Sequence record: PV700625
Direction: 5' to 3' (one strand)
Length of the DNA: 64,000 nt
Origin: Escherichia phage MET-P1-301
Positions 48,783 through 48,869 of the stretch are shown here, piece after piece. The notes under the pieces are model-generated. The model searched no databases. It worked only from the letters and a program-made list of their open reading frames with translations, and was not told the origin of the DNA. Positions within the stretch are counted from its first letter, which is position 1. Each line of letters opens with the position of its first letter. The translations under genes were made by a program, and so were the position numbers.

Positions 48783-48869
48783 AGAGGTCTGAAGTTGTGC
48801 CGCTAACTCAACTCCGTGGGATTTGTTACGGTCTTCAGTTGACTCAAAGCGGTCTTTCACTTGACCTCT
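48783..48869 (-). ncRNA. structured tRNA-sized element that does not fit a cloverleaf
   Basis: 87 nt bounded by perfect 7-bp inverted repeat AGAGGTC/GACCTCT with nested internal pairings (CCGCT/AGCGG, TCAACT/AGTTGA); no T-loop in either orientation; strand assignment by context. Confidence 0.3.

Follow-up and report, generated by a model that had tools for sequence, protein, structure and literature searches.

A conserved structured RNA gene, of a family not in Rfam, occupies a tRNA slot in the tRNA array of Felix O1-like phages

The tRNA cluster of phage T4 contains two RNA genes that do not encode tRNAs, rnaC (species 1, 139 nt) and rnaD (species 2, 119 nt), which are located on the tRNA strand, directly behind a tRNA and only a few nucleotides from it. 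Both T4 RNAs are products of tRNA-precursor processing, in which RNase P acts on the precursor of species 1. A second group of RNAs relevant here is formed by the Y RNAs, represented by YrlA (RF02553) and metazoan Y_RNA (RF00019), which are 80–130 nt long, have their two ends paired in a terminal stem and are encoded on the strand of a Ro60-type gene and within 4 kb of it (Chen et al. 2014, PMC4201824). Here we analysed an 87-nt element at positions 48783–48869 (minus strand) of a 64,000-nt stretch of Escherichia phage MET-P1-301 (sequence record PV700625; the whole stretch is called the window below) and found it to be a genuine unannotated RNA gene whose family is not in Rfam. Like rnaC and rnaD, it is a non-tRNA gene on the tRNA strand of a phage tRNA cluster, a few nucleotides directly behind a tRNA, and we read it as comparable in kind to them. 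Homology was rejected, as a covariance model built from 19 distinct variants of the element (model R1, with searches limited to fetched sequence) scored at most 10.8 bits on the T4 tRNA region, at unrelated positions. The sizes also differ, and rnaC ends in a canonical T arm (CCGGGUUCGAAUCCCGG), which the element lacks. No Ro60-like gene was seen in the 5 kb inspected around the T4 tRNA cluster.

The region shares 99.6% identity with Escherichia phage vB_EcoM_ULIM3, and 253 phage records match it, mostly from Felixounavirus. ARAGORN called 26 tRNA genes between positions 46607 and 52147, all on the minus strand, on which the other window features described below also lie unless stated otherwise; 24 of the 26 were confirmed by Rfam at gathering thresholds. 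Read on the tRNA strand, from 48869 to 48783, the element runs AGAGGUC...GACCUCU (in full, AGAGGUCAAGUGAAAGACCGCUUUGAGUCAACUGAAGACCGUAACAAAUCCCACGGAGUUGAGUUAGCGGCACAACUUCAGACCUCU), and it is numbered 1–87 in this sense, so that RNA position i corresponds to window coordinate 48870 − i. The sequence bears out the initial annotation of 87 nt bounded by a perfect 7-bp inverted repeat in a tRNA slot of the cluster: the 4-nt spacer AUUU (48870–48873) separates the element from the encoded CCA of its 5′ neighbour, tRNA-Thr (48874–48949), and the 6-nt spacer UUUCAC (48777–48782) separates it from the +1 position of its 3′ neighbour, tRNA-Val (48702–48776), both tRNAs being ARAGORN calls. In tRNA sense, the order in the window is tRNA-Gly, tRNA-Thr, the element, tRNA-Val, tRNA-Leu, tRNA-Arg and a DUF7338 gene (47965–48522). 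The 7-bp repeat alone is not significant in 64 kb; by our own arithmetic, pairs of such repeats at this spacing are expected by chance on the order of 100 or more times in that length. The element, which is present in a single copy per genome, stands above chance because it is conserved and covarying, not because of the repeat.

A blastn search with the 97-nt slot returned 262 phage records, 256 of them at ≥90% identity; two are stray matches of 19 nt in Erwinia, and the remainder form an Avunavirus-type set at ~81%. When the Avunavirus copy served as the query in a reciprocal search, essentially the same set of records came back. The carriers belong to Felixounavirus, Suspvirus, Mooglevirus and, in a different genomic context, Avunavirus. 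Among these ~260 phage records none annotates the element as an RNA, and a few place spurious open reading frames (ORFs) over it. Across 38 distinct sequence contexts taken from GenBank, IMG/VR and metagenomes, the mean pairwise identity of the element was 0.957 with 26% variable columns, compared with 0.937 and 25% for tRNA-Val, 0.857 and 36% for tRNA-Thr, and 0.85–0.86 and 50% for the two spacers flanking the element. The element is at least as conserved as the flanking tRNAs and is under purifying selection as strong as theirs. In the metagenomic relative L045 it is 86% identical, whereas the Ro60-like protein encoded upstream is merely 62% identical.

In Avunavirus (Av-05, 24-2-1 and TH18; subfamily Vequintavirinae), the element is located 6–7 nt behind tRNA-Gly(tcc) and is followed by a small ORF and then by the DUF7338 gene. 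Model R1 assigned 113 bits to the window element and 95 bits to the Av-05 copy. Throughout, the element starts 4–7 nt behind a tRNA 3′ end, that of tRNA-Thr in Ounavirinae and that of tRNA-Gly in Avunavirus. What is constant in both clades is the tRNA 3′ end directly before the element and DUF7338 downstream of it; the downstream tRNA is not constant. The element is a shared part of a tRNA-array module in two myovirus subfamilies. DUF7338 (185 aa; 5598–6140 in the Av-05 locus L066) is apparently membrane-associated and embedded in the tRNA array, and it is the only protein gene found to be syntenic with the element in both Ounavirinae and Avunavirus. Among close relatives the tRNA array is a mosaic. 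Phage DE17 has an additional ORF of ~30 aa between tRNA-Arg and tRNA-Leu (L002 619–732), LF82P2 has a ~430-nt insert separating tRNA-Thr and tRNA-Gly (L003 950–1378), and Michonne has an HNH endonuclease gene adjoining tRNA-Leu (L015 1199–1491). Two allelic forms of tRNA-Thr also occur among the relatives, with the element unchanged.

That the element is not a tRNA, as originally noted, held up in every search made. ARAGORN found no tRNA at the element on either strand, Rfam at gathering thresholds returned no family, and a permissive Rfam scan of positions 48760–48890 (131 nt, E ≤ 10) gave only noise with E above 2 and no match to the tRNA model; no cloverleaf was recovered, which also disposes of an intron-containing tRNA. 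The element has no T-loop consensus (UUCRANY), T arm or D arm, and no encoded CCA (its 3′ flank reads UUUCAC), whereas all the other tRNAs of the array encode CCA. A literature search found no paper describing the RNA.

Protein coding was likewise rejected. The ORFs that cross the element (61 aa on the plus strand and 58 aa on the minus strand) both extend through tRNA-Val, and their frame is not kept among relatives, in which the element is 87, 86 or 84 nt long owing to 1-nt indels; these length variants exclude coding. Read on the plus strand, the invariant core described below (48821–48843) gives ICYGLQL, which is also the active-site motif of glutamine amidotransferases of class I. When metagenomes and genomes were scanned for exact 19-mers, no more distant homologue was added, only close relatives and seven unrelated matches, several of which look, by inspection only, like glutamine-amidotransferase genes with the motif GICYGLQL. 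We judge this motif to be a coincidence and not a coding signal, because 1-nt indels break the ORF in the relatives.

Other assignments were also tried and rejected. An antisense regulator has no target in the sequences searched: blastn found no complementarity to the element in 5,426 E. coli genomes (E ≤ 10, corresponding to roughly 20 nt or more), and the longest complement within the window is 11 nt, which is typical of shuffles. Mimicry of the 16S decoding site was considered for UGAAG(A)CCGUAACAA, which recalls 16S positions 1490–1503 (UGAAGUCGUAACAA), but the resemblance is no better than that of shuffles; in the best local alignments of the element to 16S, 23S and 5S rRNA in either sense, 214 of 300 shuffles scored as high. 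An intrinsic terminator is incompatible with a negative terminator scan and with the missing U run in Avunavirus.

To describe the structure, we compared the fold of the window copy with the pairs kept across the 19 variants. The single-sequence fold is rod-like, with a free energy of −29.4 kcal/mol and z = −3.7 (none of 200 shuffles as good) on the minus strand, compared with z = −3.0 on the plus strand. Two helices are well supported as conserved pairings by their sequence variation. P1 joins RNA positions 1–7 (AGAGGUC, 48863–48869) with 81–87 (GACCUCU, 48783–48789) and is paired in 94.7% of cells, with G4-C84 replaced by U4-A84 in Avunavirus and by G4-U84 in variant L046. A long-range helix joins positions 16 and 18–21 (G.CCGC, 48849–48854) with 67–71 (GCGGC, 48799–48803); here G20-C68 becomes A20-U68 in L037 and L038 and G-U in L062, and G16-C71 becomes A16-U71 in Avunavirus.

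A third helix, P3, would pair positions 55–61 (GGAGUUG, 48809–48815) with 73–79 (CAACUUC, 48791–48797), which places the 3′ strand of the long-range helix inside the P3 loop. P3 is paired in 100% of cells across the variants although four of its pairs vary: A57-U77 changes to G57-C77 in Avunavirus and to G-U in L045, G56-U78 to A-U in phage wV8 and to G-C in five variants (L026, L027, L045 and Avunavirus), U59-A75 to U-G, and G55-C79 to G-U. For the three helices the covariation score was 0.094; shuffles gave 0.069 ± 0.006, with 1 of 500 as high, and controls with slid partners did not exceed 0.049. The long-range helix forms a pseudoknot together with P3 and is nested when the rod folds. Between these helices lies an invariant core of 23 nt, positions 27–49 (GUCAACUGAAGACCGUAACAAAU, 48821–48843), which is identical in 19 of 19 variants, including those of Avunavirus and L045, and holds a small hairpin (27–29/37–39) with the loop AACUGAA.

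The initial annotation described nested internal helices. This rod stands as the minimum-energy fold of the window copy but not as the conserved fold, as at least five independent substitutions break rod-specific pairs. Pairs 8-78 and 26-64 are broken in five sequences each, 9-77 and 28-62 in two each, and 39-56 in one, in every case without any double change; P1 and the 16–21/67–71 pairing are common to the rod and the alternative. In the two most divergent lineages, Av-05 and L045, the P3-enforced fold is itself the minimum-energy fold. These observations suggest that P3 and the pseudoknot form the centre of the element, which is better supported than the rod. The sequence CAACU occurs twice in the element and either copy can pair with the same AGUUG, and a bistable RNA is conceivable.

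The supported pairs also indicate the strand. On the tRNA strand 353 of 361 cells pair, compared with 334 of 361 on the opposite strand, where 20 G-U pairs would turn into C-A. The functional molecule is therefore an RNA in the tRNA sense.

Given the conservation and the covariation on the tRNA strand, a small stable RNA, one of the possibilities raised at the outset, is the most likely reading. The best explanation, which we regard as probable, is that the polycistronic tRNA operon of the phage includes a gene for a non-coding RNA that is small, stable and structured, and that this RNA acts via its invariant core. No promoter-like or terminator-like site was called by the scan in or beside the element, and the closest upstream promoter-like sites on the minus strand are at 50171 and 49753; co-transcription with the flanking tRNAs is therefore the simplest reading. 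By analogy with established tRNA-operon processing, the cut by RNase P at +1 of tRNA-Val would set the 3′ side of the element. Its 5′ end would arise where an endonuclease cleaves the A/U spacer that follows the CCA of tRNA-Thr, and a 3′ exonuclease could then trim back to the helix. With both ends locked in the 7-bp P1, the released RNA would be expected to persist. Its conserved fold may be compact rather than rod-like, with P3 stacked beside P1 and a 5–6-bp helix between positions 16–21 and the P3 loop, so presenting the 23-nt invariant and largely unpaired segment as the putative working part. This core is most likely a specific protein-binding site, with the RNA serving as a decoy or scaffold and not as an antisense regulator. 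The phage Ro60-like protein is one candidate partner, although not the favoured one.

Several points weigh against this explanation. In the window copy the rod is favoured by 7.6 kcal/mol over the nested part of the alternative, a difference in which the pseudoknot helix is uncounted, and RNAalifold returns the rod with a covariation term of −0.09, in an alignment dominated by near-identical sequences. The 19 distinct variants come from a few lineages, and independent substitution events are accordingly few. Protein binding, which appears the likeliest mode of action, is deduced from the invariant unpaired segment, and our literature search found no transcriptome of a Felix O1-like phage. Finally, the tRNA genes of the related phage Bas63 are mostly dispensable in laboratory hosts (PMC11482910), and any phenotype of the element may therefore be conditional.

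The alternative that survives best, although we consider it unlikely, is that the element is a Y-RNA-type partner of the phage Ro60-like protein, in which the GGUC-bearing terminal stem would bind the Ro60 ring and the rest would tether an effector. The Ro60-like gene (52312–53726), which carries the Pfam domains DUF2828 and DUF7788, is directly upstream of the tRNA array. An AlphaFold model of an intact homologue with 98% identity has a pLDDT (predicted local distance difference test) score of 85.6, and its 12 best fold matches in the PDB are all full-length matches to Ro60, Rsr or TROVE proteins, including Ro60 of Thermus phage phiLo; in mycobacteriophages the DUF2828 family is annotated 'Ro-like RNA binding protein'. 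Relative to the intact 471-aa gene of ULIM3, the Ro60-like gene of the window has lost 1 nt from an A6 run at ~53170 and consists of two ORFs as a result, which could be a sequencing error or a real frameshift. The element starts (48869) 3.4 kb downstream of the gene end (52312) on the same strand, within the 4 kb found for Y RNAs, and its 5′ and 3′ ends pair in a terminal stem, the 7-bp P1, which shows a compensatory change. Its size is similar to that of YrlA and Y_RNA, and GGUC occurs near its 5′ end, where the 5′ strand GGUCAAGUG (GGUCGAGUG in Suspvirus) recalls GGUCCGA, the sequence that Xenopus Ro60 contacts. In Avunavirus, which is without the Ro60-like protein, no part of the element is altered more than this 5′ segment. 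A preprint on PhageMaP likewise notes that gp130 of Bas63 resembles Ro60 and lies upstream of tRNAs, and speculates that some of the 'tRNAs' are Y RNAs (PMC11482910).

The distribution of the element, however, is decoupled from DUF2828. The complete genome of Av-05 contains the element (95 bits) but no DUF2828 homologue, and a scan of six Av-05 proteins revealed no TROVE domain. Conversely, in 75 distant IMG/VR loci that surround DUF2828 genes (L074–L148), many with tRNA arrays directly downstream of the gene, model R1 detected no homologue, nor did it in L074 with the filters off. Neither the Y_RNA nor the YrlA model matched the element at E ≤ 10, although the YrlA model does match Mycobacterium phage Wilder weakly and so was in the searched set. 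The element also differs from Y RNAs in having no T or D arm and no permuted tRNA-like module as in YrlA. The Ro-binding motif GNCGAAN0-1G (Chen et al. 2014) is not matched either: GUCAAGUG has two mismatches, its Suspvirus counterpart GUCGAGUG has one, and Avunavirus reads GUCAAUG. A Y-like 'upper' helix (8–11/75–78) is broken in five variants and lost in Avunavirus.

The array itself contains far better Y-RNA candidates, much nearer to the Ro60-like gene. Four units downstream of it have ACAGAAGACCnnUUACAGCAAA in common (the stem-loop family form being ACAGAAGACCnnTTACAGCAAA), and their closing stems differ by compensatory changes: units A (51974–51908) and C (51350–51284) are closed by AGACCAA/UUGGUCU, and units B (51807–51748) and D (51264–51139) by AGACCGU/ACGGUCU. 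Within its closing stem, unit D has an anticodon-like arm, a T arm (GAAGGUUCGAUUCCUUC), a closed acceptor-like hairpin and a D-like arm, the arrangement of the permuted tRNA-like module of YrlA. Judged by their sequences, these four units (51139–51974) are the best Y-RNA candidates in the window, and these stem + UUACAGCAAA units fit a Ro60 partner far better than the element does. Related signals accompany DUF2828 genes elsewhere. In 73 of the distant IMG/VR loci, ACAGCAA occurs on the gene strand at 0.67–0.72 per kb within 600 nt of DUF2828 genes compared with 0.10 per kb elsewhere. Often two 'stem-UUACAGCAA' units follow right behind the DUF2828 stop codon, for example GGUUCC-UUACAGCAA...GGAACC, and in phage Wilder (L150 5430–5740) three ACAGCAA units lie beside a Ro-like gene, one of them with the weak YrlA match. 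Many DUF2828 genes are also directly followed by tRNA arrays or a tmRNA (transfer-messenger RNA). The ACAGCAA units have the look of a signature, widespread and possibly not yet described, of RNAs that partner the Ro60-like proteins of phages.

The element shares with the stem + UUACAGCAA RNAs its array, strand, tRNA-slot size and terminal closing stem. It lacks ACAGCAA, a signature enriched ~7-fold beside DUF2828 genes, and directly 3′ of the 5′ strand of its closing stem it reads GUAACAAAU in place of (U)UACAGCAA; with units B and D it has only ACnGAAGACCGU in common, which is not above shuffles. The two motifs that had been taken as akin to the stem-loop family, GAAGACCG (48829–48836) and AAAGACCG (48850–48857), are indeed present, but their kinship to it is not above shuffles, and the AAAGACCG copy is not present in Avunavirus. 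Homology to the four-copy ACAGAAGACC..UUACAGCAAA family was rejected: the single match (11/12 nt) has a score of 12, which 115 of 1000 shuffles also attained, and higher scores against this family occur elsewhere in the window. The Y-RNA-like stem suggested in the initial annotation was therefore right as to the terminal stem and the nearby Ro60-like gene, and wanting in Y-RNA matches, arms, motifs and dependence on that gene; it was a good lead that probably does not apply to the element.

A bolder proposal, to which we assign a somewhat smaller chance than to the Y-RNA partner, is that the element represents a new class of phage structured RNA, compact and pseudoknotted or bistable, which moves with tRNA-array modules from one unrelated myovirus lineage to another (Ounavirinae and Vequintavirinae) and either uses its core as a decoy for a host factor or processes itself. 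The host factor in this joint proposal would be an RNA-targeting one, for example a tRNA-directed defence nuclease or an RNA-sensing immune protein.

A minor possibility, slightly less probable again, is that the element acts only in cis, as a hairpin that insulates the tRNA precursor or directs its processing (an entry site for RNase III or RNase E, for example), and is without function once excised. The window-copy rod is long and largely double-stranded, the element is directly behind a tRNA 3′ end throughout, and a second conserved rod fills another tRNA slot at 50835–50912. For such a hairpin, however, shape suffices and 23 invariant nucleotides are not needed, the rod-specific pairs are not kept, and in Avunavirus it is a coding gene and not a tRNA that lies downstream of the element. 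This second rod-like, tRNA-sized element lies between tRNA-Lys(ttt) and tRNA-Met; its Av-05 counterpart (L066 7318–7390) has ~79% identity, with the stem ACCCU/AGGGU changed in a compensatory manner to ACCCC/GGGGU. This second element is not a tRNA either, and no Rfam family matches it.

Also minor, and clearly less probable than a processing hairpin, is an activity of the element while the tRNA transcript matures, either as a new ribozyme, small and self-cleaving, or as a new switch that senses a ligand. Small ribozymes like that of hepatitis delta virus (HDV) have been reported behind tRNA 3′ ends in phages, and the element is located a few nucleotides behind one; its 84–87 nt, likely pseudoknot, invariant core and two mutually exclusive folds that use the duplicated CAACU would suit such an RNA. 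However, no known ribozyme (hammerhead, HDV-like, twister, pistol or hatchet) or riboswitch matched at E ≤ 10, and nothing in the analysis points to catalysis. On inspection of the sequence, a hammerhead was rejected since, although CUGAAGA fits CUGANGA and GAAA is present, the order is wrong and the GAA after helix II is missing; the topology of an HDV-like fold is incompatible with the pairing of the 5′ and 3′ termini.

A function of the element as DNA, whether as a cruciform or as a site for protein binding, recombination or homing, is effectively excluded, as are coding sequence and a degenerate tRNA. The mosaic tRNA arrays with inserted small ORFs and HNH genes, and an invariant core that could serve as a DNA site, would accord with a DNA-level role, but the element is single copy per genome and its 20 G-U pairs occur on the tRNA strand only, where 353 of 361 cells pair, compared with 334 on the opposite one. 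The least probable proposal of all, that of a decayed tRNA gene persisting as a functionless fossil, accords with the tRNA size, the tRNA slot and the 7-bp terminal helix resembling an acceptor stem, but fails, as does the 'degenerate tRNA' of the initial annotation, on conservation equal to or above that of the live neighbouring tRNAs with compensatory changes, on the absence of any residual T-loop, D-arm, CCA or cloverleaf remnant, and on retention in two phage subfamilies in different contexts.

Two other features of the array were observed. A probable tRNA-Trp(CCA) is located at 49641–49722, missed by ARAGORN and below Rfam thresholds, with the acceptor stem AUGGGAC/GUCCCAU, discriminator G, an encoded CCA and the anticodon loop CUCCAAA; it has a C31-A39 mismatch and one T-stem mismatch and is partly conserved in Av-05. 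Trp is the sole amino acid without a called tRNA in the array, and a promoter-like TTGACA-17-TAAGCT lies just upstream of the putative gene. Directly behind tRNA-Leu(tag), in a 255-nt gap without tRNAs, a near-perfect hairpin of ~90 nt (49276–49375) gave only a weak, chance-level match to a microRNA precursor, and the whole gap folds at z = −3.7.

Felix O1-like phages serve as workhorses in diagnostics and therapy directed at Salmonella and E. coli, and annotations of their tRNA arrays routinely list tRNAs and, besides them, spurious small ORFs. Our analysis indicates that at least one tRNA-sized slot of these arrays holds a selected structured RNA of a family in no database, a candidate for a new Rfam family, and that the array also has a second conserved rod and Y-RNA-like genes behind the Ro60-like gene. 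Beside T4 rnaC and rnaD, which have had no assigned function since their description, the element provides a second, unrelated and widely sampled example. If the proposal of a new RNA class were true, some slots of phage tRNA arrays would encode counter-defence or processing RNAs and not tRNAs. The natural variants, together with a clade that lacks the Ro60-like gene, make these phages a tractable system for asking what role such RNAs play.

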